Part shown: positions 18,931 through 60,000 of the stretch, in pieces
How the letters are laid out: every line of letters begins with the position of its first letter
How positions within the stretch are numbered: the stretch's first letter is position 1
DNA from: an uncultured Planctomycetales bacterium
GTDB taxonomy: Bacteria; Omnitrophota; Gorgyraeia; Zapsychrales; JANLHA01
Assembly (NCBI GenBank): GCA_964374105.1
Contig: CAYJXI010000009.1
Coordinates: forward strand, 1 to 60,606
Direction of reading: 5' to 3'
DNA: 60,606 bases
The notes under the pieces: generated by a model
What the model saw: the letters and a program-made list of their open reading frames with translations, nothing else
Databases searched by the model: none
Told to the model about the DNA's origin: nothing
Made by a program: the position numbers and the translations under genes

Positions 18931-18950
18931 GGGATGTTATGAGGCAAGCA

Positions 18951-19346
18951 ATGAGTAAAAAATTATTCCACAAGAATGCCTATTCAACCACAGAGTATAT
19001 TGCCCTTTTTATTTTTTTACTGTCGCTCATTTTTGTTTTTCAAAACTATATCGTCCGAGGCTTTTCTGGGCGATGGAAAAATGTGGGCGATATTTTTGGC
19101 TTCGGAAGACAATATGACCCCAGGCCTTTTGGGGCTGACGGAACTGGAGGCGGGACACAGGAATGTATGTGGATTGAGTCGTTGAATAATGAGGATTTCC
19201 AGTTATGGGTGGCCACCCGCTGTTTTAGAGCAAATTGTGACTGTACGCTTCCTCCGGATCATGCTCAATACAATTCTAGATGTCGAGACTGTATAAGAAC
19301 GACATGCAGAGCGACTTCGACTCAATTTCCAGAATGCAGAGATTGA
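18951..19346 (+). CDS. Flp/TadE-like pilin paralog with Cys-rich C-terminus
   Basis: 131 aa from ATG 18951, just after the hairpin. The track start 18903 lies inside the hairpin. AYSTTEYIALFIFLLSLIFVF, then VRGFSGRWKNVGDIFGFGRQYDPR (paralog of 12224). The C-terminus has 9 Cys. Confidence 0.6.
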   Translation: MSKKLFHKNAYSTTEYIALFIFLLSLIFVFQNYIVRGFSGRWKNVGDIFGFGRQYDPRPFGADGTGGGTQECMWIESLNNEDFQLWVATRCFRANCDCTLPPDHAQYNSRCRDCIRTTCRATSTQFPECRD

Positions 19347-19391
19347 TTTGTGCAAACGGCGAGTTATAATGTATTTTACCTATAAAAAACG

Positions 19392-19435
19392 AACACACAC
19401 CCGGTGTTTGTTTTTACAAACACCGGGTGTGTGTT
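19392..19435. repeat. REPIN-like inverted doublet hairpin
   Basis: AACACACACCCGGTGTTTGT-TTTT-ACAAACACCGGGTGTGTGTT: perfect 20-bp stem. Confidence 0.7.
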
Positions 19436-19455
19436 GAGAATAAAAGGATTGGTGA

Positions 19456-20310: not shown

Positions 20311-20372
20311 GCAAAGGGACACGCGTGTCCTTAAAGGGACAGTCATCACCCATATAAGGATGGTCCAAAAAG

Positions 20373-36000: not shown

Positions 36001-39000
36001 CTCAAAAGCATTATAGAGATGGTTCAACGATACGAGGGGGTTACAAAAATGAATATGGCGCCCCCAAGCCAGAATTTGATCCAAGCTACTATCCATTGGG
36101 AAGAGATGAATCTGTGGCTATGGGTACCTCTCTGCCTGATGAAAAGCGTTCATATATTGATAAATCGCTCAAATTAGAAAATGCACAAGAGTTGGCAACG
36201 CATTTCGGTGAGGAAAAGGCCAAAGAACGGATGCTGGCTCATCCAGAGTTAGCGAATTTGTCACCGGCAGAGAAAGAAGAGCTAAAGAAACTCAGTGCCG
36301 CCCAGATTGCGCTTAAATTTCCAAAGATTTGGGAAGGAGAAGGTGTTCCTCAGATGGTGTTAGTTGATGAACAAGGGTTGCCAATCCGCGCTTCGATGAA
36401 AGACGGCGTTGTTGAGCGCGACCATTATGGGAATATTAGGCAAGATCAGGACGGCGCAGTTGTGTTAGTGACTAAGACCATTAAGGAATCAGGAGAAGTT
36501 GGATATACGACCAACGATGGGAAAGCGGTTGACCTCAAGATGGTTAAGGAACTCATGTTTTATCATCCTGAGGTTGTATTAAATGGCGCACGAACAATTG
36601 AGGTCTATCAGGATATGGCCTTCCGCGGGAAGATGATTTTGCCGGATGATGATCATGACGGGGTGGCCTACTGGGGCCCCTTGAGTATGACCTTCGCATC
36701 TAAGAAAGATGATCCCGGCCTGGCAGATGCTGAGGTTTTGCCAACACGTTTTATTTTAGTTGATCAAAAGGGCGCGCCCATTCGAAAAGATGGAAGGTAT
36801 GTGGATCTGGTTAAAACCGCTAAGCCGTCAGAAGAGGTGATTTTCAAAGATCAAGAAGGTGATGAGATTAATCCAAGCTTTGTTAAAGAGTTGCCTAGCA
36901 GAATCTTTTCTCAACTTTTATACGGCCGACCTGTCGGGAGCGAAGAGGAAGATCAATGGAATTATAAGGCTACGATCGGCAAGCAGATTGGGATTAACCT
37001 CGAGACCGGGCGCTGGTATATCAGTCTCGTTGATGGGCAAATCGCCTTGCCAGCGGATTATCAAACCCACAATAAGATTTTGAATATCAATTCTGACCAT
37101 CCGGTGTTTTTAGCCAGCGCCATCGGAATTTTTAGAAAAGAACCGAAAGCCGGGCCCATACCGGCAGATTATTTATCTAAGCAAGAAGAAGAAAAAGAAA
37201 AGGAAAAAACGAAGAAAGAGAAGATAACTGAGGTGTCTCAAACCACCAGAATTGAGGACGTTTACTCTGATGGAAGTGTTCTAGCTAGATTAGGTAAAGA
37301 TAAAGCGATTAAAGAGGGGATATCGAGTCTTATTTTAGAATCAGCGGGATGGGGGAAGTATGCCTCGACTCTCGGTGATTCATGGACAACAATTGTTGCC
37401 CAACCTGGAGTTTCTCAAAAATCTCGTCGATATCTGATCGAAGAAGCCGGCGGCGGGGATGGGCAGGAATACGAATTTAAGACCACCAATAATTCCTTCA
37501 TCATTATGCCGACCCTGCCGGTTTTAGTGAGATTTATTAATCGTCTAAGACAAGGAGAGGTCCCCGGATATGATGTGGAAACAGAAACGGGACGAACGGG
37601 CGTGGCATTTAAAGAAGCCTTCGAGAAAGGAACCCCGGTGAGTGGATTCAAAGATAAGAGGAATCGCAGTGGGATTGTCCTAAAAGCCACTACCAAAAAT
37701 GGCGTAGAATACCGGCTCGTTGATCCAGATATTCTTCTTGGTGCGGGCGAGAAATGGATACCATCTTTCCGTTATAAAAGCGGAGTGAGGCGGATGGTGT
37801 ATACCAAGGCTTCGGTTTGGGAAGAGAGACCCGTTGATCAATCCTTGACCAAAGATAGTCAAGAGGTATGGAACTCCGATGACGTCATTATTGAAGTTGT
37901 AGGGAAGGATAGGACAAGTGAATTTAAATGGATAGACGATGATGACGTTCGAGTTAGGGTTGTCACAGCCACAGGGTTACCAGGAACAATGCTTGTCGAT
38001 TATTTTGAATCCACGGCGGACGATCTCAAAGGCTCAGTAGATGACAAAACCGTTAGTCTAGTTGAAGAAAGAATGGATGAAAACGGGAATATTAAAATGG
38101 TTGTGATTGGTAGAAAAATACGGGACGTGGATGATATTCAATTGGTCCCGGGGGTCGTAGAGCTTTATGGCGGCAAGGATCAGAATGGGAAAGATCTTGT
38201 TAAGATTGCCAGAGGTGTTGACCTTGCCCAGGTGATTGAGGGTGCGGCAGGGACTGTCGAACAATGGAAAAATCCTGAAAACATTTCTCAGTTCTGGAAA
38301 TTTTGGGAAGCGGATGGTTTTGGCGGAGGTGATATTGTAGTTCGTGTCCCTCGGCTTAATCCTTACAAATTGGACGGATCTTATGTCAAGAAGAGAAATG
38401 AAAAAGGGGAAGAAACCGATGATATTTTTTATGACTACTATCGGATTGATTTCAGCCACGTGAGAAATAAGATCGATGGGGAAGGGGCTAAGATTGTTTC
38501 TTTAGAAAACTTCCATGAAGGAAGAGGCCCTATTGCCAGCGAATCAACTTATTCTGGATTTTTTGACAGTTTTGATGGCGATCGAAACGAAGATAACGTG
38601 GTTGTTTCCCGTTTCAAGGAAGGCGAACTTTTGATGAGGCTGATCGATTACGAAACAACCCACGGCTTAGGCCATCTTGTAACCGATGAAATCAAAGACC
38701 CAGAGACTGGACGGGTGCTGGTGGCGCGGGGTGTTTTAAACAAAGATTTTGGCCTTAAAGACGCGGTCTTGATGGGGGAAAAGTTAGATCTAACTTCAAC
38801 AATCATTGGGTCGGTGGATGCTGTATTGGCTCCAGTGACCGTAGTTCTGGCTGTGACTGGCGTTGGGAATGCAATTAACGTTGGCATTAATGCCGGTAAA
38901 ACACTTTTGGTTGAAGGCGGCAAGGTCGCCCTCCGTCAAGCTGTTATGGCAGGGGTAAGAGCAGGCGCAAGCAGTTTGTTTGCGTTTGCCCGTAGTACCT

Positions 39001-42000
39001 ATCTTAGTAATCAAGCCTTGGCGATTTTTGCGGCTACAGAGACGTTCAATTATATGCAAACTGGAGAGATTGATCCGGCCATGACGGTGCGAAATTTCCT
39101 TTTAACTGGGGCTTTATCCGGCGCCTCACGGCTATCCTCATTTCTACCCAAGACAGCAGGAACCCAAGTTGCCGGCAAGACCTTGAACGTCTTTGGGGCA
39201 AAAATCCCTGTGCCTTCTTTAGGAAGTTTAGCTTTTAATAAGGCAGTGAGTATTGGCCTGCCGAACGCTGTATCGGTAGCCTCCGGGAATGGATTTTTAT
39301 CGCCAGAAACGAATCTGGCTTTAGTCATCGTCAGTTTTGCCGGCGGGATTGGAGGTAATTTTGCATCAGCGGCAAGAGCTGTCGGGCCAGGTTTAACAAG
39401 GGTCGGGTATATGACCTTATCCGAGGCCTTGTTATTTGGTCAAGTGTCTGCTGTCACAGGAACAACACTGCGGGCCTTCCAAAGACAGGATTCAGCCATG
39501 GATACCTTTTCAGACTTTGGAAAAGGATTTGCCTTAGGAGCGGTTGCCGGCGGTGCCATGGGGATTGGAGGAGGCATAGTTTCCGAGAGCGCTATCTATT
39601 CTAAGATGAAGGCCTATTTTGATAAGCATACAACTCAAGGTTTATTGGCAAGTTTAACTGCAAGAGGATTAGGAGGCGGCGTGGGCCTGCCGATATTAGA
39701 TGCCACATTAAAAACCTTTGAGGCCAGTCCAGTTCCTAACAAGGAAAAATCTTTTCCAGAGCAGATGAAAGATAGTTTCAGTACCGAGAATATTATTACG
39801 GGGATATTTCTTGGCCTCGCCAGCCGTGGCCTATCGGCTCAACGACTGCAAAAGGCATCAACGGCTACTAAGTTAGCTTATGGGGCAGGGGCAGGAGCTG
39901 CCGCCAATGTCTTGCACGGGTTTATTCGAGAATATAAAGATGCCAAGCAAAAACAAAAAGATATTGATTATTCTGGCGAGCAGATTTTCTTAGATGCCAT
40001 AAGTGGAGCGGCCTTAGGGATGCTGACGGTTTCGTATTTGGCTAGCCCTAAGAATTTTATCGGGAAAGGTAAAACAGCAGAACATAGTCTGAAAAATTTT
40101 TATGAAAACCCAGAAGCGCTGTTTATGTCATCTGCTCAAGGCGCAGCAAAATGGGTATGGGTATCCCCGGCCTTTGAGTTAGGAGGGGCCATTTTTAAAG
40201 GACAGGCGGTGCGTGTATCCAAAGCCGTTTTTGGAGAAGAGTCCATGTATGCTGGAGAGGATGTCCCTTGGTTGGCAGTTGACAAGGTGGATCCAGAAAC
40301 CGGGGAAGTGGTTAAAGGAAAACTGGATTCGTTAATGGAAAATGAATTGGGGATATCTGATCTTTCAAGACTTATGGAAGGGGCCATTCAAGGGCCCCAA
40401 TCCGGCCTTTGGATGGCGCCGTTGTTTGGAGTTATTCAAGCACAGGGTCTTAACGAAGGTGCAGCAAAGACGTTTTCTCAGAGAGTGCTTGCCAGTCTGC
40501 AGATGCCGAGGTGGCTTGAGAAGGTAGCGGAATCTCGATTTGGAAAGACGGTATTAGTTAAATTAGAAACTGTTAAACCGAAATCAGAAGCGGCAAAGCC
40601 GGCGGAAGCAGGGAAACCAGCCGAGGCAGGAAAACCCGCTGAGGCAGGATCGGGAAGCAGTGGTGAAGTTGCCAAAGCTGGCACAGAAGGAAAGGCCCCG
40701 ACCGGGCCTGGGCCAAATGACATTACGGTTGGGAGAGTATTAGCCAATACTTATCGTGATGTCTTTTATATGCCCACGGTTATCACCCTCATTCATGAAG
40801 GTATGCAATTTGCTAATGAGGTTAGCGATAAGATTGTAGGAAGAAAAGCAAAGAAGAATAAAGAGGGATCTGATCAATCTAAAGAGGAAGAAGAGTCCGA
40901 TGGATCATTGTTCACCCTCTCCCAGTCCTCCTATTTAGGCTGGTTAGGATTTTTATCCTTGCCGTCGTATCATCGGGGAGGAGTAGGAGCCGAAGACGGG
41001 GATGTGACCCGCATCCCGCCTCGTCCACCAACATTTGGCAAAGAAGGAGAAGGAGAAACGGGGGCCTCCCCAATGGAAACCAAAGCCAATAGGGTAGAAT
41101 CCCTCGTTGATCGCGCTTTGGGGCAGACGGAAAATTATCGAAATCAATACAATCAAGCTACCGCCGAGGCAGAAGCCTTAGAAACCAGGGCAAATGATTT
41201 GGAAATCAAATTAAAAAGTCTTCTTGCCAAGAGAAACGCTCAGGACCAAGGCCAGCCGCCCGCTGAAGTTGCCGGTGAAGAAACAGACGTGCTGGCGCGT
41301 TTAGAAAGACATAAACCAGACGATAATGGTTCTTCCGTTCCTCGACAAGCCCGGGGAGAGGAAGAGTTAGCGAGTCTTCCTGGATCAAATAACGGAAATG
41401 GGGCTGGATTAGAAAAAGAGGGGGTTTTCCTTGACCCTAATTTAGATGGAGGGCTTGCCAATCGTGTACCTACTTTACCTATTGAGGGAACACAAGGTTC
41501 GGGATCAGGAAATAAACTTCAACAGGAAATCGATGGGTTAAGGCAGCAAGCGGCTGCTAAACGTAAAGAGGCTGACGCTACCCTTCAATCTGTCGAGCAT
41601 CATGCAACAAGGGCAAAGAATTTAGCTGAGCAAGAATTAGGTTTAAGGGAGACAATCGCCTTAGGGACCGGGGATGGAATGAAGAGTGCAACACAAGGAT
41701 TGCCAGAAGCGAAAAAGGAATCGCAAGCAGGTTCTGATTCTTCTGGCAGTGAAGCAGAGCTGGCCTCAAGCAAAGGATCTTCGAAAGTCGGTCCTGCAAG
41801 AGAAGGCCAGGTGGACAAGGCCGTCGTAAGTAGACCAAAAGAAGAAGGGGTTTCTTCTCCCAAAGCACAGGAGAAATTAACTGCTGAATCAGGGGAGACT
41901 GCCAAGACTAGAGATATTTCTTCGGAGCCAGCAAAACCGCGTGATGGCCCGGCAGTTCAGGGAACGCCTCAAAGAACTACCCCGAAGACCGCCCGCGAAA

Positions 42001-45000
42001 TAGAACTCGAAAAAATAATCCAAGAAGCCGATATTTTCCTCGCCCAAGCCAATGAAGCCCTCGCCAGTTCTCCTTACACAAGAAGCCGAAAAGAATTAAA
42101 ACCTCTTACTCAAAAGGCCCAAAAGGGGGTTAAGAGAGTCGAAGAAATGATCAGCGATATTGATTCGCAACTTTCTTCTCTCGAAGGCCAGTTAACCGAG
42201 GCCCAGGCCCGTCGGGATAAATCCCAGAGAGAATTGGATAGAGAACAAAAAGATTTGGAATTAGCGGAAAAATTACTTTCCGAAGCCGAAAGGGATATTG
42301 AGGCAGAGCCGGGTGTTTCCAAAGCCAGGGAACGTGTTACCAAAGCGGAAACGAAGGCAGATTATGCGGCAGATAATTTAGAGAAGGCGAAGGCACAGAA
42401 ACAGAAGTCAGAAGCTGAATTAGCGGCCTTGAAGACAGAAGATCCTAAACGCTCGCCTAAGAAAGCCCGGGCACCTAATGAGAGTGAAGTCGGGGCTAAA
42501 GTTTTAGAGGCAAGAAAGAAGACAGAGAATGTTGAAGATACTAAAGAGAAATTAGAACGAGATGAAGATAAAGGCCATGATGCTCGGATTGAATTGGCCA
42601 AAGAAAGGGCCATGGCCGGTGAGAGATTAGGACTTGACGCCGCCAAAGAAATCGTTGCTGAACAAACAGCCTTAAGAGACCTCGCCCAACAGATTCGGGA
42701 AGACGACCATACAAAAGTCAAGGGTCTGGAAGCTCAAATCGACGCCCTGAAAGCAAAGAAACCCCACCTGGAAAAAGCCCTCGGGATAGCCCAAGCCAAA
42801 GTTGAAAAACGAAGATCGATTGTCACTAAAGAAGCCCGCCTTCGTCGTGCTAAAGAGGCGGGGGACAGAGCTGAAGCAACCGCATCCCGGATTGTTTCAG
42901 AGTTAACTGTCAGAGAAGGATCAGAACTTAAGATCAAAGACGGTCTTTCCGCAGAAGAACTTGATCTGTTAAAAATTTCTCTTGGCCGATTAAAAGAACG
43001 GGCTCAAACCGCTGAAACAATAGCCAAGGATATTTCAGAAACCCAAAGAAGCTTGGAAGCAACAGAAAGAGAGGCGGCTGATTTAAGTGCGGAATTAGAA
43101 AATCTCGGGACGCCGACAACAGCCGCAGCCCAAAGACGTATTGCGGAAATTTCCAAACGATTGGCAGAGATTTCGTCCACCCGTTCTGAGCTTAAGGCCA
43201 AACGGGAAGGATTTTTAGAGAAGGCCAAACAGGTTGATTTAGAAACCGTTGATCTTGATTCATTGATTAAGCTTGCCGTGGCAGAAAGAAGTGAGGGTCA
43301 ACGAGAAATCGAGAGGACCGATCGGGAGATTGAAGACAGCCGTCAAGAAGAAACTCGTGCCCAACAGCTCGTTGATCAAGCGCAAGCAGACTTAGATCAG
43401 GCAACAACTGCGTTAGCTGCAAAACAAAGGATTGCCAGTCAATCGGATCTTCGAGGAAAACCCGCACCGCAAGAGTTAGCCAAACGAAAAGGGCAAGGAT
43501 TTGATACGGGATACGAGTCACCTCGAGCCAAAAGAAAAGCCCGGGATGCCTCTGGAAAGACAGAAGAACAAGAGCTTGCCTCTAAGGTTTTAAAATCAGG
43601 TAAGGCGGAAAGAAATGCTGAAAAGAGCGAAGCTAAAAAGAAGAGGACACAGGAAAAATTTGATATTGAAGCGGCTCAAGAAGAAGCCGCGGCAAGACGA
43701 GCGGATTTGGAGACAGCAAAGCTTTTGTTGGCCAAGGCAAGGGTAAGAACAGCTCAAAAAGAAAAATCCTTAAGGTTAGCTGAAGCAAAAGGTGAAAAAT
43801 TAGATGAGGAAATCCTCTCATTTGGAACCGAACGGGATTCAAAAAGCACACAGAAGGCTGGGTATCAAGGTCAGGCGGCTGAGGCTCGAAAAGTCCCAAC
43901 CAAAGAGCATCTAACCCGCCTTGCTCAGGAAGCCGAACAACGGGCTGATGAATTATTAGTTAAAGAATTTCGCGATGGAAAAACAAAGGCAACACAAGAA
44001 GCCTACGAAGAAGTTGCTGCCGCAGCCAGCAGGTTGTCAGATAGGTATGCGAAATCAGAAGTAGAGTTAAGTGGCCAGAGACGATCTCTTGCGCAGGACA
44101 TTGAGGCCTCAGAGCATACCTTAAACAGATTATCTTCAGAGCTCTTTAGACTTGAGCGGGATAAGAAACAAAGCGAACAAAAGGTTGCGGAATTAAGAGA
44201 ACTTTTAGCTTCTGCCAAACAATCCGGCAAAGAACTCGAAAGCTCCCCATTGGCCAAAAAGTTAAGACAGGCAAGAGGAGCACAACAGAAAGCTTCGGAT
44301 CGTTACCAGGAAACTCAAGAGGATCCCACCAAAAACAAAGCAGTTCATCAGAAACTAAGAACTCAACAAAGGGCAGAAGAAAAATCAAGAAGGCTTCAGG
44401 AGAAATTTGATCGAGAGAAAGACGAGACCCAGGATCTAGAACAACTGATCCGCGAGGAAATCCAGACCGAGTCTAGAAAAATAGAGGAATTGGCCAAAGT
44501 CATTACCCGTCTTGAAAAGAGGGTTGACAGCGATTCCCGATTAGCGGTGGAACTTAAAGTCCAGCGCGAGGGGTTGGATCAGGTTGAATCGGATCTCAAA
44601 TTGGCCAGCAAAGAGGCCTATCAAAAGGTCAGTGAGCTGGCACGGCAAAAAGCTACAGAGGTTAGTGATGGAAAAACACCGATTGAAACCACTCCGACGT
44701 TAACACGGCCTCCGGAAAGTCCTCTCGAATTATTGGCAAAGAAATACCGAGCCGAGAGCGGAGAATCCGCCCCTGAGCAAGTCAAGCCGGGAAGTAAAAA
44801 AGAGGCAGCGGGAGAACGGGTTGCCCGAAGTACAAAAGCCATTCAAGATTCAGCCCGTCAGGAAATTGAACAACTTTTACCGCAAGTTGAATCTAGAGTC
44901 AAAGACACAAGAGAGATTCTTGCCCGGAAGTCTTCCCAAGTCTCAAAAGAACAATATGAAAGACTGGAAGGAGATCTCGGTCAACGAATTGTTAAAGAGG

Positions 45001-48000
45001 CGGAAAGAACAATTAGTGAGCTCGTTGAGCTTAATGAGTTTGGCGGGATTAAGTCAATTAAGGTGGAAGATGGTGATCTACAAGGAGCTCTTCGTGTTAT
45101 CAAGGCATATAAAATATTAGAAGAAAAGGCCTCCGATAAGGGAATGATCAAAGCCAATATTCAGCGAGCAGAAAATCGAGCCAAGGAACTGAAAGAGAAG
45201 ATCACCTCAGCCGAGGCACAGAAGGCTGATCGGGGAAAAGGTTTAGAGCAAGCTAAAGAACAAAGAATAAATGCCCAGGAACAACTGAGAGCTGAACAAG
45301 AAGAATATGCACGTCTTAACGATATCGATAATGATCCGGGTGTCAAAAAGGCAAAGGCCAAATTTGAAAAACAGGATGTGGCTTCCGAGCGGGCCGAATC
45401 GAATTACGAACGACTGCGCACAAATTATCAGACTGCCCAGAAGAAATACGAAGAGGCCTTGGCACAACAAGAAAAAGCCCCCAGCGCCGATCATGCCGAT
45501 AAGGCCTATAGAGCCAAACGCAATATGGAAGAGGCCTTTGGGAAAATGGAAAAAGCCGAAGCTGCGGCAAAGAAATTGGAGGTCCCCTATCAGCAAGCAA
45601 ATTTGGATTATCAAAAGGCAAAAGACATCGCCAGGGCAAAGGCCGCGGAACAAAAGCAATATGTACAGTTGGCCAAACAAGAATTGGCTCAAACAGAAAA
45701 GACGATAACAAGACGTCAAAGACATGTTGAGAAATTGGGCAAAATCAAAGAAGGATATGCAGAAAGACTTCTTGGCGAGCAAGAACAGATTGCCTTAAAC
45801 GAATCAACTCCTACTAAACAGAAATATCAATGGTTAAGCAGACAGGCAAAGGAAAAGGCTGTTGAAATTGCCGAAGGGGTTGTTAAGGCCTTGGCTGAGG
45901 TTGAGGTTGTTGATGGGGTTACAACAATTAAGAATATTAGGCCGACAAATAGAGAAGGATTTAAACGTTTAGCTCGTGCGGCAGATTTCTTAACCCGCCA
46001 CGCGAAATCAGAAGAATTGATTCAGCAGGAGATTCAGTTTAGGAAACGCGTTGTTTCTGCGAAAGAAAAGGATCAGGCAGACTTTAAAGAAGAATCAAAT
46101 CAAGGACAACCTGCCAATTCCTCATCCTATCGTCGACTTGCTCAAGCTGCTTTAGATCTAGCCAGAGGCAAGACTACCCCCGAACGCGAGGCATTAAAAG
46201 AGGCCAGAACCCGTCGAGAAGATTTATTGGCGCAAGAAAATGAGGGTGTTGGGGAAATTGATCGACAACTCTCCGATCACAAAGTTGAGCTCAATGAGGC
46301 CAGGACAAGAAAAGAGGGACTAAAGGGAGAAGTTGAAAAAGCCCAACGAGAGATTGCAGTAGCCGAAAGTCTTAACCAAGATGCACAGAGGCAATTAGAA
46401 CTCGCCTTAAGAAATGTGGTTCTGGATGAAGGTTTAAGACGCGCTATGGGAAATGCCGCCAACCAGAGAGCCGCCTCGCAAAAGGCCGGGGAAAATTATG
46501 AATTTGCTAAAAAGAATGATCGGGAGGCGAAAAAGAAATACGAAGAGGCCATCAAAGAGAGGGACGAGGCGATACAGAATGATTCTCCCAACAGTCATCA
46601 AAAATCATTAGAGGCCGATAATGCAAAAAGAAATATGGAAGAGGCTTCGGGTAATCTTAAGAGAGTTGAGGCCTCGGCTGAAAGAGTTGCGGAAAGTTAT
46701 CAAGCTGGTGAACTTGAATTAGCCAAGGCACGGGACACTGCGGAAAGGAAATTTAAGATTGCCGATTTACGTCAAGAAAAGAAAACCGCGGAAAGTATGC
46801 TGGAAAAGGCCACCAAAAATTATGAGGCTAAAGCCAGCGAATTCAATGAGGTCAATTCCGAAATCATTTCCCTTGAAAAGTCTATTGGCGATTTGGCGTT
46901 CCGCAGAGGTCTTAAAAAGATTGAAATCGCAAACGTTGAGAAAGATATAAGCACATTAAGAAAAATTCCAACGAAGGAAGAATATTCTTCCAAGGCTAAG
47001 GATGCTGCCAGAACCGCAGATGAACGGCTTATCCAAGAGGCCTGGCAGGGACGAGAACGCAGCAGTGCTCAAGAATATGATGAGGTTGCTAAGGTCGCGG
47101 ATAAGTTATATCGCGAGGCACCCACCCAAGAGACATTGGATCAGCAATGGCAGTCAGCAAGGCAGGATTATGAAGTTGAACGTCATAGTTTAAGAAAGGT
47201 CCGAGGCGAGATCGAAAAGACTCAATCCCAATTAGAAGAAGCTATCCGAAAGAGGGAACAATTAGAGAGCGATGTTGAATATGCTAAAGGAGAGGTGAAA
47301 GGCGTAGAAAGCACTAAACAAGGGAAAGGTCTTGCTCGAGCCGAGGTGAATCTGCGTAATCAACAAAAAGCCTTGGCAAAAGCTTTAAGCAAAGGAACAC
47401 CCGGTGAGACGCAGGGACAGGCTGTTTCTTCTAAAGAAAGAGCGGTCAGGCGGGCAACAGAAAAGGTTAAAAGTAAAAAGCCGGCTCTTGAAAAAGAGAC
47501 AACAGAACGGGAAGAATTCCTTGAATTAGCCAGAGTCGAGCTCAAAGAAGCCCGTGCCAAAGAAAAAGAACTCCGCCAGAATCTTTCCCGAATGCAGGCT
47601 ACAGAAAAACAAATTGAATCTGATCTAAGTCGAGCTAATGAAAGAGTTAAGGCTATCGAATCCACCTTATCCCGTGCAGAGCTTGCTTTGATCTCAAAAG
47701 AGGCAAAACAAAAGGCGCGGGAAATGGAACAGGGCCGAGTTTCCTCTCCTCAAGAGAAAAAAGAAGGAGAGCCAATATTACAGAAGGTCTTCCGCACTGA
47801 ACTGGAGTTGCAAGAGGGATTTGAGGTTGCCAAGCCATCGCAAGCTGAGCCGGGGACAAGGCGGCATGAAGCCCAAGTCAGATCTGCCAAGGTCAAAGGG
47901 GCGATGCAGAAAGGAGCCAAGGAGGCCTTAAGACAATTGGTTCCTGAAGTAGAACGAGGAGTCCAGGAATCAAAAGACTCTTTAGCAAAGAAAGAGAAAG

Positions 48001-51000
48001 AGATTTCTAAAGAAGGTTACACTGGGATAAAGAGGACCACGCTGAAAGAGATGTCTAGGTCGGCCCGAAGGGAATTATCCGAAGAGAGTGGTTCTCAATC
48101 GAGGATAGAGTCTGACATATCGCAAAGGGGTGAGGTCGTCCTAGGAGAAAGAGCTAAACGCGCTGAGGCCAGACGCAAGGAGATGAATATATTAGGGAAG
48201 GAGCTTGGCCAAGTCTCCCGTCAAGTAGCAGAGGTAGATACCCGCTTAGCGACATTAAGATCTCAATTGAAAAGCGGTGTTGCGGAGGGAAGGACCTTGG
48301 ATTCTTCTGAAAAAATCCATATGAGAGATACTCTTATCCCCCGATTAGAAAAACAGAGAAGCCGATTAGCAGAGAAATTCGATACCGCCAAAAAGAGTCT
48401 GGATCGTTTGAATGTGCAGTTACGTGCGCAAGAGGTAGCCGATCAAATATTGGCCAAGGCCTTGGCAACTTTGCCCAAACCACGGGTTGATAAGACACCC
48501 ATCAAGCCCCAGGCACCACCTAAGGAGTTTACATTTTCTGATGTTTTGGATAGAGTCATTGCCAAAAAGGATGATCGTGTCTTGGATGATTTCTTGGGTC
48601 GTAGCCTTGGTTCTGAAAGACAGGATATCCTTGAAGAATTATGGAGCCGTGCGAGATTGGAAACAGCTACGGAAGGCTCTATCATCTCAGAGGCTTTAAA
48701 AAAATTAGGACTTGATTATAAACTTAATGGATTAGAACCTTTTTATAAACAAGCGATTTCAGAAGATTCAGCGGCAGGGAGGCTTGCTGCCAAAAGAGAG
48801 TTATATTTAAGAAGTCAGAGTGCTACCTCAAGAACAGAAAGACTAGCCGCCCACTGGGCACTATCAGATATTGATCATATCCTAGCTGAACGCGCACGAT
48901 CTCAAAGTGACGAGTTAGCCGCATCGACACGTGATAAAGCAGTTAAAACCCAAACACCTCCCCGGTCTCGGCAGAAATCATCGAGGCCATCAACAGGAAC
49001 ATCCTCTCCAGATGGTACCAAGCCTTCGATCGTTCGCAAGGTTATTGATAAATATAAAGCGATAAAGCAGGAAAGAGAAGAGGTCAAGAGGGCAAAAAGG
49101 GTAGCCACCCTTGCTAAGGAATTGTTTGATAACGATGGTAAAGAAACACCTGCCTTTAGAGATGAGACATCAGTAGAAATTAAATCTGCTGCCTTTGAAA
49201 TGTATCGCACATTGCAAGATACGAAGACAGATATAGAAAATTTTGCTAGGGCCCAAGGAGAGAAACCTTTTGACCTTAAGACTGAAGATGTGGATTGGTT
49301 AGAGGTTTATGAAATGGCAAGGAATGCTTATGGACAATTCAAGAAGGGGGAAAAACCTTTTATTGTTATTTCCAAAGAAACCGGCGGCGGTAAGACTGTT
49401 TTGATTCAAGCCTTAGCTTTAATGCTGGCAAGGGATCCTTTTATGAGAGATCGGTCTGTTGTCATTGTTGTTCCAGAGTCAGTAAAGACAGAAATATTAA
49501 CGGATTCGACAAAGAGTATGTTGAAAGGCCGGATTAGGGATGTCAAGAATAAGAATGAAAGCTTGTCCATTGAGAGGGGCCTTAATATCGCCACCCATGC
49601 TGAGGCCCAGCGGTTACGCCATGAAAACAAGATTGACAAATCGATGATTGAATTGAGCGACGAAACCGACCGGCAGAACCGTATCCCTGTTTTGGTTGTC
49701 AGTAGCGGCCGGGATTCTGAGCAGATTATGGATCGGGCCAGGGCCGGAGATCGAAAAGCCAAGGAGATTGTCCGTAATTCAGAAGTGGATCGATCTCAGA
49801 CAGAACTTTTAGCACTTATTAGCGAAAAGTTGGTTGAGCAAGAGGGAGATATTCATAAGGTTGTTGCGTTTGATGGAAGTCGAAGAAAGAATCCTTGGGA
49901 TTTTAGGAAGGATAAGGACGATTCCGGATCTTCTGCCCGAGGGAGGGTTGAGAGACTTTATCGAGAGATTGTGGATTCTTGGGAAGGAAAAGAATTAGGC
50001 AAAGAAACCGCCCAGTTATTAGGGGAGTGGCAAAAGGATGCAAGTTTCAATGAAAGATTTAACACAGCTTTTGAGGGTTTCAGAAATGCGGGTGGTGAGG
50101 TTTTAGAGTTTAGTGGGAAAACCATGGAGAAAAAATTAGGTGCCTTGGCCCGGTATCTTTATAATCGGGCAACACCTGACTACAAATTTGATCCAGAAGG
50201 CGATATGCTTTTTTATATGTTAGCGGATAGTGGCCATTCGCAAAAGGGAACTATTCCCGGTGATTCCGAATACGCCAGGATGCTTGTCATTGCTGTGACT
50301 TGGGATAAATTAGGTGTGGGAAAACGCGGGGAAACCTTGAAGAATTATTTAACCGCAAGACGGACAAAGACAATGAATCCTGTATCCGACGTGGATGTGC
50401 ATTCAGCCTTTGGTCTTGTCATAGGCTTCTCAGGAACAGCAGAATCTATGGAATTGGCGGGCCGTGCCCAAGGGGCGAGATTTTTAAAACCTAAGACAGA
50501 GAGAAATAATGTGGATTTTATGGAGCTTAGATTAGATGACCGTCCAGTTGATGTGAGAGATCCAGTTAAATCAATTGCAGAAGGGATCAAGGAACATCTC
50601 TTTAGAGAAGATTTAAGGGACCCATCCAGGGGTGAAGATGGACGGGAATATAATAATGCTCGTTTAACAATCGCCACAACAGATCATCGTGAGGCATTTG
50701 ATAGATTAGTAGTTGAGGCCGAAGCCAATGGAGGTCGCCTGAAATTAGATGGGAAAGAGAAAAGGGTTGCCATTGTCACTGAATATAAAGATTCAGGAGA
50801 GATAGATGCCAAGCAATTGGAAGAGGCAAAAGATGCTGTAAAGAGGCTTCAAGAAGATAAGGATGAAGAACTGATTGTTTTGTTCCTAGGATTGAGTGGC
50901 GGTTCGAATATCGCGGCCTTAGCCGACAGGCTTGTAGAAACCGCGGGGAGTGTTGCTAAGGCCCGAGAAAGTGTTTCAAAAGCCAATGTTTTAGTTTTCA

Positions 51001-54000
51001 GCGCCAGAGCTACCGCAGACATGGGGCAAGCAGGCGGGCGTGTTAATATCGCAGGTGACAGGGAATCCCAACGTATGAATGCGCATAAGGTTGAAGGGAT
51101 TATCTTTATCAACGCAGATGGAAAAGTTGAGACTCCGCAACGGTCGCGTGCTCTGGATGCGGTTGCTTCTGGAGACAAGAACCAAATTCGACTCGTTGCC
51201 TTGGAGATTTTGGATTCCATCCAGAATCGTAATTTAATCAGCAAAGTTTATACTGTGGCCAAGACAAGCCCAGAATTAACTAAGGAAACAGTTAGAGACG
51301 TTGTCCATGATTTTATGAAGAAATCCACTGATCGACGTGTTATGGACATTATGGATCGATCAGGAAGATTTGAACTCAGTGTTGCCTTGGATTCGGGCAA
51401 AGGTTATGAGACTTATAAAGCCAAGAAATATGATGAAAATGGAAAAGTTAAAGAAGTTGAGGCGGTGAGCATAACCGCGACCACAGGACCGATTTTCTTT
51501 GGCGGTGGGGTTAGATTACAGCCCGGGCAAACTTACAATTATCAAGACGGATTTATCTATGCCACCGTTGAAAGTGAGAAAGGTAAACTGCCTCTGAGTG
51601 CGGTAGCTGCCAATCTTCAAGACAAGAAACCAGCCATGCAGCCGGTGGCGGTCTTCAGAACTTATTACGATGAAAAGAAACAAGGTTTCGTCAACGGGAT
51701 TTTTGATATTCAACTGGATACGGAAGGGAAAAAATATTTTGCACGACCAAATGAGAAAGTCGAATTCGTCCAAGAAGACGGCAAAAAGGTTTCCGTTGCT
51801 GTTGATAATGTCCAGTATCTCGATCAGGAAAAGAAGAATGAAAATTACTTAAAAGTCACTCAGGGTTCTAAAGAACTGGGGATCAGGGCAGGTGATCAAA
51901 TCCTTTCTTTGAATAATAGGATTGTCGTGACAAGGCAGCAAGGACCGCAAAGGCTTATTAAAAAGATTCTCGCCAAGGATTCTTCCGGCTCATTTAAACT
52001 CTCTAATTTGAAAGTTTCTAATTTAGAAGTATCGGGACCCAAAACAGAAAACCCCGATGGCACCGTTGGCATTACGGAAGAAACCTTTAGAGCTTTAAAG
52101 CATCAAGAGAAAATTGTTTCGCAGATGTTAGCCGCAACAAGCGAATTGCCGCAGCTTCATAATTCCGGAAAGATTAAGGCCTCCGTCGAAGAAATGTTAA
52201 GCCAGGCGCAATCTCTTCTCGGTTATCGAGAAGGCTGGCAGGTGACAAGAAAAGGGGATTGGCAAATCGAAGGCGGCCGAATTGTGGAACATCCCTATTT
52301 AGAGATTGCCCATCAAGATGACATCCAAGGGGAGAGAACCCAGTTAGGGAAATTACAAAAAGTCGCTGAGAAAAAATATGGGACTAAGTTTATCTTTGAT
52401 CCTTTTATGGAACACCACGGCACCGCTGGGGAAGCAGACAAAGAAAAGAGAGAATTGCTTTTGGGTACGCATGCCTTTGTGACCTTAGCCACTCCTATCA
52501 AGACCATGCAGGGTTCTGGGGTTGCTTGGCATGAGGTTTCGCACATGACCGATAATTACCGTGAGGCCCAAGGAACTCCTAATATCGGTGGTGCAGCCAG
52601 AATTAGGGTTGTTAACCGGGGCAAACGACTTCCGTTTTATAAGGAAGACGATATTGGGGGTTATCATGATGATTTTGCCATAGGAGAAATCAAGACCCAT
52701 GAGATTACCGGCGCCGCAAGATTGATTGATATGAGAGACGCGGTAAGGTTGGGTGACGAGAAAGGGGCAGATTCTTTTGCTTATGGAGCGCTGGATTATT
52801 TAGAAAGAGGGGCAAAGATCGCCTTCAATACCCAGTTTGCCACCGAGTTTGCCTTAAGATCCGTCGCCCGTCAAGATAGAACTTCTGGCGAGTGGGTTTT
52901 GGATCGGGATAAGAGTCATAACATTGAAATCCAAGGGAATAAAGCTGTGATAAAGGTTTTGGATGACGATGTGGAAGAATTTATTGAGATAGACCAGCCG
53001 CTTCCTCAGAATCTAAGCAATGATAGTGATAAGAAAGAGTGGATTGTCAAACAGCTTGATTTAACCGCTAAGATGGCCAAGACAAGAGGCTCTGCCATGA
53101 AACTTAAAGCGGCCCTGGCTAAAAGTCATCGCGATGATTCATTGATTAGCGATGCGATCAAGAATTCAAGAAGAGAGCTGAAAGATATATTAGGAGAGGC
53201 GGTTAAAGAAGATGGCCGTTTTACGGCAATAGAGCCAAGCCGTAGCGAGGCCGAACTGGTTCTCTCAGAGGTTTTGAGTACGGCTAGGCCGGTTGAAGAG
53301 AAGAATCAAGTGACTTATATCAGTCCAATCACAGGGCGGGGGATCGTGGTTGATTCTGATTCAAGAAAAATCGTGAAATTCATTTCCCAAGAACCAGCCT
53401 TGACAAAATTCCTTGATTTTGTTGTTGATGAGAAGGATAAAAGCGAAGCGATCGAACGAGTACAAGCCACCGATCGTTCTCCTGAAGGCCGGGCCTTCAA
53501 ATCGGCCTATCAAAAAGCACAGCTTCTAGAGGAACCGGAGATTCTCGATAGAGTTCAATTATTTGCCTTGTCAGATAATGACCTTCAGAGAGAAGTCACC
53601 TTTTTCGTTGATCAGTATAAATCAAAAGTGACGGATGTGGGTTCACAAGCTCTGCAACAGGAACTTTCCGCTGATCGACGATTCGTTTCCCATTCAAGAA
53701 AACTTAAAAGCCATCCAGAGATTTATATTGCCAAGGCTGACAAGGTGGCCTCAAGAATCAGTGACTTTTTAGAATCAGTCGGCGGACATGATTTGGTTGT
53801 GGCCGATACTTCAGAAAAGATGTCCTGGGTTGTTCTTTTTGAGGCCCTGACCTTAAAGAATCCAACGATGAGTGATGATCGTAAAATTGCTCAATTGCGC
53901 GATTGGTATCAAGAACTCGAATCGTCTGAGGGGATTGATATAGATGAAGATATAGATATTGAAGAACCTTCTTATGCCTCGGTTGACAGGGCGATGTTGT

Positions 54001-57000
54001 CCCTTGGCCGGTCGAAGAGAATAGAGATGCCAAAAACTTCTGCCTTACCAAGAATCAGAAGTCAAAAATCTCAATCAAGTCAAACCGATGAACGTTCACG
54101 ATTATACGACATAGCCGAAGGGATTAATAGAGGAAGCAGAGAAGATTTGGCAAGTGAGAGTTCTTTTTCGACTCCTCAAGTCAAGGCTATGTCAAAGATC
54201 GTTGAGAGATTAACAAAAACAATCCCAGGATTTAAACCCGAGTTAGGTCAGACCGCTTTGGGTTATGCCACATTAGAAAGCGCAGAGAGGGCTGCCGAGG
54301 GCAAAGGAGACATCTTGCTTTGGGTCTCTCCCCAGGGAAGAGGAAAAACAACAATAGGAGTTCCTTCAGCCATGGAAGCCGCAAAGAGAGAAAATATCCC
54401 GATTGTTTATTCGGCCTCGGATGAGGCTAATGCAGCCAAGATTGTGATAGAAGCCGAACGTCTTTTAGGCCCTGGTGCAGTTGATCGAGTTCAATATGAA
54501 AGGGGAAGACCAGTTCTTCAAGAACTCAAGAAAGGCCGCGTTGTTGTCATGACCATCCGGGAACAGCAGGAATTCCAATCCCGCGGCAAACTTTCGAATG
54601 TCTTTGGTTTGTTAGATGAAGCCCATCGGACAACCTCTGCGGCACCCTTAGTCGAAGGCCCGGCCCGCGGGATCGGCAGGGATATGCTCTCAAGCGAACG
54701 AGGCCGAATTGAGGTTAAAAGATTGAAATTCAAAGAACAACTGGAGCATAACATTGCGCTTATGGATACGGTCAGAGAAGTGGCTGGTGAAATCGGCGGG
54801 AAAGATCCCTGGATCATCGTTAAGAATCAGGAAGATCAAAGCGGGAACCCCATTGGCGAGGCATTTGAGAGCAGAGACGTGGCGGTTGATATTTACGGAA
54901 ATGTTTTGAAAGATAATAATGGCAATGCCATCCGGCCTAAACAGATCATTTTAGAAAGATTTGCTCAGAGACCCGAATCCAAGGCTTATGAATTTACGGA
55001 AACAGAGATGAACGCATTACTAAATTCTGGTGTCCGTATGCTCATGAGCGAAATGAATGCACCCCGTGTCGCCTATAAAGAAGGAAGAGACGGCAAAATC
55101 GAAGATTATGCCCCCATTGATATTGACACCGGGGAGGCCAAGTGGGGACAGATTTTTGGAGATCCAACGGGGGGTCTTAATCCCGATGGGCGTATGGCCA
55201 TTGCCTCCCAAGGGAAAAAGGCCTCGCTAGACCTTTATATTGATAATGTCTTAAGCAAAACAACGAAAGAAACAACCGGGATTGATGTCATCAAAGGAAT
55301 GAGCGGATCAATCTTGGCGACCGGGACATCGGATTTAGCTATGGATATGATCGCCAAAAGAAAAGTCCAGACCAATCCTCAAATTAAATTGGGTGAGATG
55401 GCTGCCAAACTCATTCTTGATGACGGCAATAGTCCTAATTCGCGAGCAATAGCCGCGGTTGATCGGACCTTAGCCCATATCAATTCTAGGGAAGGAAGGG
55501 ATACGAATCTGGTCATTATCGACAGCAGTATTCCAACAGACCGGGAATATCATCGAAAGCAGCTGGAAGGGTTAAAGGGGTATACCTTTGTTGAGAAAAC
55601 CGGGGAAGAACTGGCCAATTTCGTAAAAGATTTTAATGAAGGCAAAGTCAAGGGCAAGGTTATTCTTTCTACCCAAGTGTATGATGGGATTTCTTTCGAA
55701 GGGCCAGGGAAGATTCATATGATCTTGGCCAATGCTACTTCAGAAAATAATCGGAACCAGGCTTTTACCCGCGGCGGATCAACTCCTGAACTGGCTAAAC
55801 GCAGAACCCCGATGACCGCGGAACAAATCATGAATATGAACGATCCCCAGTTCGATCATAAGACAAGAACTCGGTTAGCCCTAAGAAAGCTAGAGTTAAA
55901 GCAGGCGGAAAAAGAGGCAGGGGTTAATCCCCAAACCGGCGAGATTGTAAGTTTTGATCCCGCCAAGATCGAGAGAGTCAAGACAGCCAGGGTTAATCTG
56001 CAGGCTGAACTTGAAGGAGTAGCGCATCAGTTGGCAAGCCGCGCCCAAACACCAAGTTTAAGACAAGTTTCTCGATTAAGTCAAAAGGCAGAAGGGGAAA
56101 GATATTCTGAACAAGAAATCATGCAAAGAATCGAGGAATACGAAACAGCCCAGTTAACGAGCCGGGCCAAGTGGGCGATGGAATCAACCGGACAGAAAAG
56201 GGTTGATATCTCTTTTGAGAACAACAAGGGTTACGAGACCTTTGTCTTGGATGCGACCCAAAAGTCAGGTGTTCGGCCGATCAGCATTTCGGCAACAGCA
56301 AGCCTCCCCTTAAACTATGGTCTTGTTTTACAGTCTGGCCAGACCCTAGATCTCGATCAGCATTTGATCTATGAAGACGATAAAGATGGAAATCGCTCTC
56401 AAGAACCCACGGCAATTGTGCAGTATACGCCGGTCGTGGAAAACAATGTGCCTCGTATGGAGACCAAGGTTCTGCCATTAACCAACGGGAGATATTTTAC
56501 GAAAGATATCCAACAGGGCTTTAAGAGTGATCTTGCGTTAGAGAAAGTGACTTATGAGATTGGGACGAAAAAACAGGATAAGCCTAAGCTCACCCATTAC
56601 CTTGTGCGGGCAACGCCTCAAATTCGTCAGGAATTTGGATTTACCGAAGCGCAGGATCAAGAAGGTCTTGTTAAGGTTCCTAAAGAACATTTTGAACGCG
56701 CAATAGCTCTTAATGAAAACAAAAATTTACGAAATCAAAAATTCAGCGAGATCCTCGGGAAAATCCAGGGCTCAGTGATAGCTGATCTGATGAGCGCCGA
56801 AAGATACCAGAAGGCAAGTCAAAGAGAGACCGAGATAAGAAAAGCCGTTGAGTTGGCCTTATCCGAGGTCAGTGAGGTTGATAAACTCACCCTAAGCGAA
56901 ATGGGTTCGAGTGAAAAAGAATTTTTAAAGAGAGCCTTGGATTCTAAAGATGATAAGGCCGAGGTTGTGATGTTTGATGTCAACAAAGATGAGCTGCGTC

Positions 57001-60000
57001 AGGAGATTGCAAAGACTTTGGATAGTTTGGTTGAAACCAAACAGATTTCTAAGAAAGAACGCGTTCAATTCGAACATCAAATGAAGGATCGGTTGATCGG
57101 CGGGCATTACGGCTTGGGCGGGAAATTTACCGGCCATGGCCGAGAGACAGTTTATATGTTCAAAAACGCCGATGAGGCGGAAGACTTGTTGACCGAAATT
57201 GGGCGAGAGGAAACCGAAAGACCGCAGAGAATAGCGCAAGGCGTGCTGCACGAAACCATCGGTTTGGTCAGCAAGGTCGATGAATATCTTGATGAAAGAG
57301 GCCATGAAGAGAATGTGGCTATCCAGCGGCAATGGAATGAATTATTAGGGAAGGTAGCACCTCAAGAACGAAGACAGGCCGCCTTAAAATCTAAAGAGGC
57401 GAGTGACACGAAAGATTATGCCATTTTAGCTACGCCCAAAGAACTCGTTCCTCAAGTCGCTCCACAACCCGGTATAGAGACCCCAATTCAGTTGACGCCT
57501 GTTTTACCGACTATGCCAACCCTTACCCCCATTCTTCCCTTAGGTCGCAAAACGGAAACTAAGAAGAAAAAGGAAACAGAATTAGCCGTTTCATCTAAAC
57601 CAGTAAGGAGAGATACGGCGATCCTCACCCAGGTGAGACCCGGCATGTTCGATCGATTCAGGTCCCGCCTAACACAGATGGGCGGGATAACCGCGGTGGG
57701 GCTGTTAGGATTTTTTAGCCCGACACCCAAATTGGAGGCGCAGTCACAAGAAAGTGTTGAGTTCTATCAAGCCAGTGATGAACAGCATAAAAGCGATTTT
57801 GGCTTCCCGCAGGCCAAACAAGAGCTTTCCCTTAATCTAGACCAGATGCTTGACAGTTTACGCGCTGACCGCGGCGGGATTGTTCCTGCGGAAATCAATG
57901 CGCCAAACCTTATGAAAATTGCCGGCAGCCTGCCGAAGTCGAGGCCGACGTTTGAAGATTTTACGAAGGCCGTTTCCCGCGAACTGAAAACCAGATATGA
58001 CCGCTACAATAAAGGCCAGATGTCAGCCGCCGAAGTTGAGGAGCTGGCGAAAATGGAAGGCGAGGTCCTGCGCTGGACGTATAAATTTTGGGATCACAAT
58101 GTGGCTTACGATACAGAGGGTGTGCGTACGGGTGCGTGGAAAATCGGCGACCTTCACCATGCCGTCGTTGGTAATCCGAACCTTCCTGGCCGGCCGCGGA
58201 CCGGGGTGTGCGATTCCTGCAGTGACCTCACCACGATGACCTTAAACGAACTCGGGTTCGGTCATAAAAAAGACAGTGTTTCGAAGGTCGGTGTCAAGGT
58301 GAATTTTGCCGGCAGGGATCAGGATGCAGGCGGCGGGCATACGGCCGTGCTGTGGAAGGGCGTCAAAGCAAACGGCATCATTGACTTAACCCAAGGTGTG
58401 AAGGGAGATCTCAATACCGATGTGAAACACAAGGTCCTTTGGGTAAACACACAAAACGGTAAAAGGTTCATTGATTTAAGCCGGGAAGATTTGGCCGATG
58501 TCACCGGTGAGACCTTCGGCAATCTCCTGGAATTCAAGAAGACCTGGGTGGCAGCCAATAAATTGATTGAGAATCACAACGCGACCATTGCCTTGGTTAA
58601 CAGCGGCCGCACGCCGTTAGATCTCATTATGCCATCCCTGGAAGACATTGCCTATAAGACCGGTGTCTTAAAAGGATCGCCGGCCACGGCCCATCGACCC
58701 GAATTGAGGAAAAATTTAGAGCAGTTAAGTATTGGGGTTGCCCAAAGCATGGCGACCGCCAGATACAACGACGGTGTCAAGACCCACGAGCGGCTGGTCA
58801 ACAAACTGAACGAGGCCAATCAGCTGGCTAATGACGGAAAATTCAACGAGGCCATCAAGCTTTACGATTCTGTCAAGAAAGACGCTCAGGATCATGCGGC
58901 CCGTTTGGAAAAATCGCCGCTGGTGAATATCAAAAAGGCGGATATGGACGGACGGAGGATTATCAGCGAAATTCACAAGGCCGCCGAGGTCGCCGAGCAG
59001 AACCGCCAGGCGGCGGAACATAATAAAACTATAGGCGCTCGGGGCGTTAAGACCGCGGCGGTCAGCGGCTCTGTCCAGGGTGCCATTGAGGCCATGAACA
59101 GATTTAATGAGAGGTTAAATCTGGCCAACCGCGAGTTTAAGAAAGGCAATTACGAAGAGGCCAGACGGCAATACGATTCCATAAAGAAAGAAATTTCGAA
59201 AACCGTCGAGTCGTTCAATGCCTCAGCGTTGGCCAAATTAACCGAAAGCGAATCGAATCTGCAGGATGAACAGGGCCGAGCAGTGAGCGGTAAACAACTG
59301 ATTGGCAACATCGATCAGTTGCGCAAAGTTGCCGAGAGCAATCTTAAGGCTACCGAGCAGAATATTCATACGGGTCAGTATAACAATCTGGTGAAGCAGT
59401 TTAATGACTATGCCAATGCCCGGAATCTTAATGAGGTTTTGAGGAACATCGGCAATGTCAGCCGTGAGGCCGACCGTTTCGCTAAGGAGCCGGCGGTTGA
59501 AACCAAAATGCGTGACGCCTTCAAAGAATTGAAGAAGCAGGCCGACAAGGTGATTCAGCAAAAAACAGAATCCGGCGCGCTCATGCCGTCGGCAAAAGCG
59601 GAGGTTCAGTTGGCCATGGCTCCGATCAAGGAGTTGGCGCCGGCCAAGGATTCCGTAGGGCTTACCGCTATCTCCTTGGCGCAGACGCCAAGTTCACTTG
59701 TGCTAGCCCGGGCCAAGGGCATGACTTCATTGCCAGAGGAGAGGTATGCGGAATTTGATAAGATCAATGACACCTTGCTTATGAAACAGATTTCCCTAGA
59801 ATCTCTGAAAATGAAGTTATCCAACATCCCAGCGGCCGAACGTACCGAGCAGGAGAGGATTCAAAAGCAGATTGCATCGGTCGAAACCGAGATTAGGATA
59901 TTGGAAGAATTGAATCAGAAGATTTCAGAGACCCTGGATACTTTGGTTGAAACCAAACAGATTTCTAAGAAAGAACGCGTTCAATTCGAACATCAAATGA

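Follow-up and report, generated by a model that had tools for sequence, protein, structure and literature searches.

What kind of motor is embedded deep within a bacterial protein of more than 12,000 residues, and what could such a motor move? This question is raised by a 60,606-nucleotide stretch of DNA from an uncultured Planctomycetales bacterium that is assigned to the Omnitrophota in GTDB (Gorgyraeia; Zapsychrales; JANLHA01), namely positions 1 to 60,606 of contig CAYJXI010000009.1 in assembly GCA_964374105.1 (hereafter, the window). In frame +3, no stop codon interrupts the 12,179 codons between nt 24069 and 60605, and the frame is still open at the window end. A first-pass annotation, made from the sequence alone, flagged within the product of this giant open reading frame (ORF), at 54290-55800, a second, independent module resembling SecA and DEAD/DEAH-type ATPases; the location holds, the domain itself being slightly wider (54189-55862). 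Here we argue that this module, module 2, is a superfamily 2 (SF2) ATPase with a SecA-type plan, that it belongs to one of two duplicated motor units of the giant protein and that it would move, most likely, polypeptides on the cytoplasmic side of the membrane, an explanation to which, taken as a whole, we assign a probability of roughly 0.6. Within it, we count as established that the motifs are present, that the two modules are paralogues and that they belong to SF2, along with the taxon and the type of locus. The features on which the argument turns are the following (aa, residues of the giant protein; HMM, hidden Markov model).

24075..60605, + strand: giant ORF, first ATG at 24075, at least 12,177 codons, 3' end beyond the window; holds both motors
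24582..24956, + strand: N-terminal Peptidase_C39 domain, aa 172-296 (Pfam E 5.1e-9, 36.5 bits, gathering score 22)
38799..40040, + strand: transmembrane-like hydrophobic segments, clustered at aa ~4911-5324, N-terminal to both motors (hydropathy scan)
49239..51206, + strand: module 1, the paralogous motor, aa 8391-9046 (family HMM; hhalign to the module 2 family)
51336..51560, + strand: domain after module 1, aa 9090-9164 (30% identical to aa 10699-10768, E 3e-5)
54189..55862, + strand: module 2, SF2/SecA-like ATPase, aa 10041-10598, ~560 residues (family HMM match)
56163..56372, + strand: domain after module 2, aa 10699-10768 (homologous to aa 9090-9164)

Anatomy of module 2

The five-motif series on which the first-pass annotation was based is present, all strings lying where they had been placed and in one uninterrupted frame (+3). 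The conservation given below refers to an alignment of the four-member family that consists of module 1, module 2 and the proteins P0001 and P0002 introduced further on, with pairwise identities of 20-31%.

54327..54353, + strand: motif I (Walker A) SPQGRGKTT, aa 10087; G52-K53-T54 invariant
from 54396, + strand: IPIVYSASDEANA string, aa 10110, in frame
from 54609, + strand: LLDEAHRTTSAAPLVEG string, aa 10181, in frame
54609..54659, + strand: motif II LLDEAH and the next strand, APLVEG; D143 and E144 invariant
54660..55307, + strand: ~215-residue insert between motifs II and III (family and SecA alignments)
55311..55334, + strand: motif III ILATGTSD, aa 10415; family consensus GFTGTAEGF, compare GMTGTA of SecA
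55335..55862, + strand: RecA2-like half, with a beta-alpha-beta pattern and model confidence of 66-74 at module residues 440-500
55755-55778, + strand: motif VI NQAFTRGG (QAFTRGG: aa 10564, nt 55758); Q524 and R528 invariant

The layout of the module is thus GxGKT, DEAH, the insert, TGT and Q-x3-R-x-G, followed by a stretch of ~130 residues. Motif I comes after a hydrophobic strand (LLWVSPQGRGKTT) and keeps its G-K-T in all four members of the family; FGLLDEAH sits 94 residues past the P-loop, and the insert carries a conserved G-x4-Y-x3-D-x3-G...GD signature. The columns that are invariant in all four sequences are the catalytic ones, namely G-K-T, D-E, the threonine of motif III and the glutamine and arginine of motif VI. 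Module 2 is an SF2 ATPase, probably catalytically competent and composed of two RecA-like halves.

Membership in superfamily 2

The profile HMM and structure comparisons called for by the first-pass annotation were run with Pfam, hhalign, AlphaFold2 (AF2) and Foldseek. When isolated, the RecA1 half of module 2 matches the Pfam families DEAD (E 4.8e-5, 23.6 bits, short of the gathering score of 26) and SWI2_SNF2 (E 0.0055); module 1 matches ResIII (E 0.002), as does the RecA1 part of the family consensus, this time above the gathering score (E 8e-6, 26.3 bits, against 22.5). Helicase_C matched neither the consensus nor any of the members, even at E <= 10. In local mode, hhalign aligns the family with profiles of SecA, DEAD-box and DinG proteins at scores of 32-41, that is, ~6-8 standard deviations above column shuffles, which score ~15 +/- 2-4 with a maximum of ~22.

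In the AF2 model of module 2, the RecA1 half reaches a predicted local distance difference test score (pLDDT) of 65-83 and the RecA2 core one of 66-74, with the beta-alpha-beta pattern, and the insert region falls below 50. All 19 of the 19 matches that Foldseek finds in the PDB with E <= 1e-3 are SF2 motors, among them RIG-I, FANCM, Hef, DinG, Snf2-type remodellers and XPD, with probabilities up to 0.99 (top values 0.98-0.99) and, for this low-confidence model, template modelling scores (TM-scores) of ~0.2. The first-pass annotation had let its case depend on both regions modelling as tandem RecA-like domains: module 2 does so, weakly, and the model of module 1 (pLDDT 39.6) gave no meaningful matches, its confidence being such that its Foldseek result carries no meaning. 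Taken together, these lines of evidence, each of them modest, are consistent with the assignment of module 2 to the tandem-RecA ATPases of SF2.

How SecA-like is the module?

Could the affinity of the module be narrowed down to SecA? A profile of the SecA motor was built from 11 sequences, that is, E. coli secA along with plasmid-borne SecA, SecA2 and SecA-like genes, and DEAD-box (9 sequences) and DinG (7 sequences) profiles served as controls. In the global mode of hhalign, the score against the SecA profile is 45.6 (E 1.7e-8), 39.4 without a divergent Legionella sequence, the addition of which accordingly lifts the score of this family, and 42.3 core to core (E from 1.7e-8 to 2.3e-7 over the three comparisons), compared with at most 11.1 for SecA shuffles, 9.5 for DEAD-box proteins and 1.0 for DinG. 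An end-to-end collinear alignment was obtained with the SecA profile only, every motif as well as the stretch past motif VI being in register. In this alignment, SPQGRGKT is paired with MRTGEGKT, ILATGTSD with LAGMTGTAD and NQAFTRGG with NQLRGRSG; motif II, LLDEAH...APLVEG, is aligned to its SecA counterpart, and VDEHTGRTMQGRRWSD is among the paired segments, listed between LLDEAH...APLVEG and ILATGTSD. The insert occupies the site of the preprotein-binding domain of SecA, between motifs II and III.

Several observations weigh against our explanation. Neither Pfam SecA_DEAD (PF07517) nor SecA_PP_bind matches any member or the family consensus, SecA_DEAD and the NCBIfam SecA and SecA2 models remaining without a match even at E <= 10, and PDB sequence and profile searches yielded neither SecA nor a helicase at a significant E-value. 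Single SecA sequences, that of E. coli included, give no signal in hhalign, a multi-sequence profile being required. The insert alone scores 12.4 against the SecA preprotein-binding domain, which is the noise level (shuffles, 11.2 +/- 1.8), and the insert-free core finds its best local profile alignment with the DEAD-box profile (41.2, E 1.2e-4, 199 columns), local scores against DEAD-box proteins being no lower than those against SecA. In Foldseek, SecA ranks 26th (E 1.6e-3), behind RIG-I, FANCM, Hef, DinG and Snf2-type motors, and the models themselves, both computed from a 4-sequence alignment, have mean pLDDT values of 49.7 (module 2) and 39.6 (module 1). The global mode of hhalign proved unstable, with a score of 126 for one of the shuffled DEAD-box controls, so that the E-values from this mode are taken as indicative only. 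Motif VI, in which the four members share one arginine, is cut down to Q-x3-R-x-G, with the motif III threonine kept throughout. Finally, membrane topology and substrate, to which we return below, are what we infer from context. Thus, of the composite SecA-DEAD/DEAH label proposed at the outset, the P-loop motor, the SF2 order of motifs and the catalytic residues stand, and the SecA component, with a collinear profile alignment on one side and the absence of Pfam SecA_DEAD and SecA_PP_bind matches on the other, is moderately supported: the module appears to work and to be laid out in the manner of SecA, which falls short of a demonstration that it belongs to the SecA family.

A 13.8-kb plasmid of Legionella geestiana (NZ_CP041715.1) is mostly occupied by the gene for one hypothetical protein of ~2,948 aa with a SecA-like motor that is 25% identical to E. 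coli SecA. Alphaproteobacterial plasmids, of Methylosinus and Pontibrevibacter, encode SecA-like proteins of ~600 aa that lack the scaffold and wing, one of which is annotated as a 'prepilin peptidase'.

An ancient duplication of motor and adjoining domain

Module 1 has a Walker A motif ETGGGKTV (aa 8439), a motif II LSDETD and a motif III GFSGTAES, and its P-loop, the sole other module-heading G-x-GKT of the giant protein, is located 1,651 residues upstream of that of module 2, in agreement with the ~1,650 residues given in the first-pass annotation. A third G-x-GKT string, at aa 5332, is part of no module. A third, degenerate module in the window was considered as a candidate and rejected, the family HMM detecting two only.

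How are the two modules related? The view that module 2 is no recent copy of module 1 is borne out, given that BLASTP between them finds nothing significant (best E 0.58-0.81) and that they share 19.6% identity over 495 aligned positions. The profile of module 2, P0001 and P0002, in turn, aligns with module 1 in hhalign over 489 columns (E 1.6e-10, probability 96.9), from before motif I to past motif VI, and module 1 is linked to P0001 by BLASTP (E 3e-9). An old internal duplication, as previously suggested, is what these results indicate, and it extends beyond the motor: the domains of ~75 residues that follow the two modules are homologous, so the duplicated unit consists of the motor together with the adjoining domain, which is also found in P0002 and in a further protein, P0003. 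It follows that the second module cannot be called independent in origin, the two being paralogues; on the strength of the profile comparison, we conclude that module 2 is a true, anciently duplicated paralogue of module 1. Module 2 shares more residues with P0001 and P0002 (25% identity) than with module 1, which implies either that the duplication predates the split from those lineages or that module 1 evolves faster.

Relatives in sequence databases

How widespread is this type of module? A full HMMER scan (phmmer) of 1.84 billion representative proteins returned three matches only, and just two of these proteins carry a module of the same type. Both are partial proteins from Omnitrophota metagenome-assembled genomes (MAGs): P0001 (MDD4908046.1, 4,868 aa, phmmer E 2.7e-18) and P0002 (MBL8013117.1, 2,703 aa). 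The third match, P0003, comes from a sediment metagenome and covers the post-motor domain only. P0001 is collinear with the giant protein, with a C39 N-terminus, a transmembrane cluster, which is homologous over aa 2110-2517 to the transmembrane-like cluster described here, and a motor. It also contains a DnaJ J-domain (aa 2646-2696), located between the transmembrane cluster and its single motor, ~300 residues before the latter; in the giant protein of the window, neither a DnaJ match nor an HPD motif was found.

Other searches added little. A word-indexed homology search, the candidate list of which saturates at 8,000, yielded no relatives with module 2 or with a 3-sequence profile, and module 2 and the P0001 module, used as queries against GTDB genomes and JGI metagenomes, retrieved none either; NCBIfam, PADLOC and PHROGs gave nothing useful for the modules. 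With the N-terminal C39 region as the query, a search for full-length homologues of the giant protein recovered 22 short contig-end fragments only.

A possible mechanism and its competitors

What would be the function of such a motor at such a place? The scenario that we favor takes the domain plan of module 2 to be that of the SecA motor, with a first nucleotide-binding domain (NBD1), an inserted preprotein-binding domain and a second nucleotide-binding domain (NBD2), and posits two units, each consisting of a motor and the same downstream domain, both of which are C-terminal to the transmembrane cluster. ATP is available in the cytoplasm only, and J-domains are partners of the cytoplasmic Hsp70. 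The position of the motors past the transmembrane cluster, the J-domain that precedes the motor in P0001 and the confinement of ATP therefore suggest that both motors would lie on the cytoplasmic face of the membrane. There, they would hydrolyze ATP to move or remodel a polymer, the likeliest substrate being a polypeptide, whether the giant protein itself, its fragments cleaved by C39 or partner proteins. That the substrate is a polypeptide appears most likely by analogy with SecA and in view of the published proposal for SecA-like domains in giant proteins. A more specific version of this scenario can be imagined, in which the SecA-like ATPases on the cytoplasmic tail of a giant surface protein, each with the same downstream adaptor domain, form a two-engine device for the export or assembly of that protein and work with the adjacent Tad/type II secretion system (T2SS)-like machinery rather than with SecYEG. 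In this specific form, the scenario is unlikely; should it be true, the device would represent a self-contained mode of secretion, undescribed for any characterized system.

The obvious competitor is a generic SF2 helicase or translocase of the DEAD/DExH/ResIII kind that acts on DNA or RNA and has no specific tie to SecA or to export. The best Pfam matches are to DEAD, ResIII and SWI2_SNF2, never to SecA_DEAD, the top Foldseek matches are the nucleic acid motors RIG-I, FANCM, Hef and DinG, the core aligns best, locally, with DEAD-box proteins, and a resemblance of the insert to the preprotein-binding domain cannot be shown. Against such a motor stand the absence of a Helicase_C match, the full-length collinear alignment, which works with SecA alone, the insert between motifs II and III and the SecA-like motif III (G-F/M-T-G-T-A) and post-motif II extension. 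Furthermore, Pfam found no nucleic acid-binding domain nearby, and the relatives published for this class of proteins bear SecA-like annotations. On balance, a generic helicase seems possible but rather unlikely.

It is a different question whether the module is active at all, as opposed to being a duplicate that has decayed, has lost catalysis and is left with no more than a structural or spacer role. The extreme divergence from module 1 and the reduced motif VI would fit with decay, and no close homologues were found on which selection could be tested; yet the GKT of Walker A, the DE of motif II, the threonine of motif III and the glutamine and arginine of motif VI have been kept in all four members in the face of 20-31% identity, and the frame is intact across 36.5 kb, so we regard a dead duplicate as very unlikely. 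Short motifs such as DE-x-x do recur elsewhere in a protein of this length, and one might even suspect that the motifs of the module co-occur by chance in a very long, low-information protein. This idea is refuted by the alignment of the two modules, by the match to P0001 among 1.84 billion proteins and by the distance of the profile scores from those of the shuffles, and its probability is negligible.

Comparison with known systems

Giant genes of Omnitrophota have been described, with a conserved upstream cluster that includes Rotamase_2, rcpC and gspD/E/F-like genes (West-Roberts et al., 2023, bioRxiv 10.1101/2023.11.21.568195). The encoded proteins possess an N-terminal C39 domain, transmembrane regions and a 'divergent SecA DEAD helicase' with preprotein-binding domains, in the absence of the SecA scaffold and wing (bioRxiv 10.1101/2023.11.21.568195), and clusters of architectures with C39 and SecA_DEAD have been reported as well (bioRxiv 10.64898/2026.06.07.730766). 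The protein analyzed here resembles those in its phylum, in the upstream cluster (Rotamase_2, rcpC, secretin, gspE-/gspF-like), in the N-terminal C39, in the motor that comes after a transmembrane region, in the insert between motifs II and III and in that no SecA scaffold or wing was detected. The published domains, however, are recognized by Pfam SecA_DEAD, whereas neither of the two modules, the two homologues or the consensus is, and the presence of two motor copies in one protein is not mentioned in bioRxiv 10.1101/2023.11.21.568195. SecA-like domains in Omnitrophota giants being already known, what is new is the degree of divergence and the presence, twice, of a unit of motor plus adaptor, with catalytic residues in both copies.

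With canonical SecA and SecA2, the modules have in common the order of motifs I, Ia, II, III and VI and the distances between them, the position of the insert and the T-G-T of motif III. The identity, however, is ~15%, the modules have no sequence match in Pfam, NCBIfam or the PDB to these proteins, the arginine pair of the SecA motif VI (GRxGRQG) is represented by one arginine, and SecA is a free protein of ~900 aa whereas the motor here is embedded twice in a protein of more than 12,000 aa. The similarity to DEAD-box and ResIII helicases resides in the RecA1 half, whose scores against Pfam DEAD and ResIII are borderline; the modules differ from these helicases by the ~215-aa insert, the lack of a Helicase_C match and the lack of an end-to-end alignment (global score 9.5). 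The SecA-like proteins of Legionella, Methylosinus and Pontibrevibacter are comparable in that their SecA-type motor lacks the C-terminal scaffold and wing and, in Legionella, is part of a very large protein, but a tblastn search with E. coli SecA picks them up directly (25-43% identity), unlike the modules analyzed here.

The giant proteins of Omnitrophota are thought to attach to prey and to degrade it. The broader question that is touched upon is how proteins of 10,000-100,000 residues are exported at all, for which assistance by embedded SecA-like domains is the published idea. The present case indicates that giants which appear to Pfam as 'C39-only' also carry motors, too divergent for standard annotation. 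Moreover, the motor with its adjoining domain amounts to a compact, expressible fragment of ~700 aa on which the protein translocase and nucleic acid helicase readings could be compared.

The upstream locus

Upstream of the giant gene, a Tad/T2SS-like cluster and a transposase gene were identified with Pfam.

185..21254, + strand: Tad/T2SS-like cluster
185-1168, + strand: Rotamase_2 peptidyl-prolyl isomerase gene
1200-2000, + strand: RcpC/CpaB gene
2038-4143, + strand: secretin fused to a C-terminal TonB_C domain
4256-6424, + strand: TadZ-TadA fusion (ParA-like TadZ and TadA/T2SSE ATPase)
19456-21254, + strand: two T2SSF genes
21885-23198, - strand: IS5/DUF772-DDE transposase gene, separating the Tad cluster from the giant gene

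The locus is of the kind typical of giant genes in Omnitrophota, as follows from the very long ORF, the C39 domain, the transmembrane segments, the upstream cluster and the Omnitrophota origin. Counterparts of the TadZ-TadA protein occur, at 61-77% identity, in ~40 MAGs, mostly labelled Candidatus Omnitrophota and in several cases uncultured Planctomycetales, and an identical copy of the Tad part is carried by a Logan contig of run ERR3478686. Searched by tblastn, 41 Tad loci of Omnitrophota (+/-10 kb) gave no match to the giant protein. Mobile elements are reported to be enriched beside giant-gene loci (bioRxiv 10.64898/2026.06.07.730766), with which the IS5-type transposase gene agrees. The secretin-TonB_C and TadZ-TadA fusions are unusual for a pilus cluster, and three large ORFs within the cluster, at 7452-9251, 12622-14235 and 14693-18850 (599, 537 and 1,385 aa), have zero Pfam matches.

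Other regions of the giant protein

Over the whole giant protein, C39 is the only domain found by Pfam. The C39 peptidase is accompanied by a hydrophobic signal anchor at the N-terminus, and the hydropathy scan reveals further hydrophobic segments at aa 348 and aa 394. An array of ~120-residue repeats with mutual identities of 30-70% spans approximately 27970-31270 of the window (aa ~1300-2400) and includes, at aa 1473-1528, a weak SusG_CBM58-like match; it is in this array that the extracellular portion responsible for binding probably lies.

Two more pairs of similar segments were seen. One is a pair of ~220-residue segments, 90% identical and 972 residues apart (window 56988-57641 and 59904-60518; aa 10974-11191 and 11946-12150), for which either a recent internal duplication or a collapse or expansion in the assembly is possible. 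The other, a second old duplication in this protein, involves ~500 residues that are ~30% identical at an offset of ~1,020 residues (window ~43500-45020 and ~46580-48080; aa 6480-7000 and 7505-8005).

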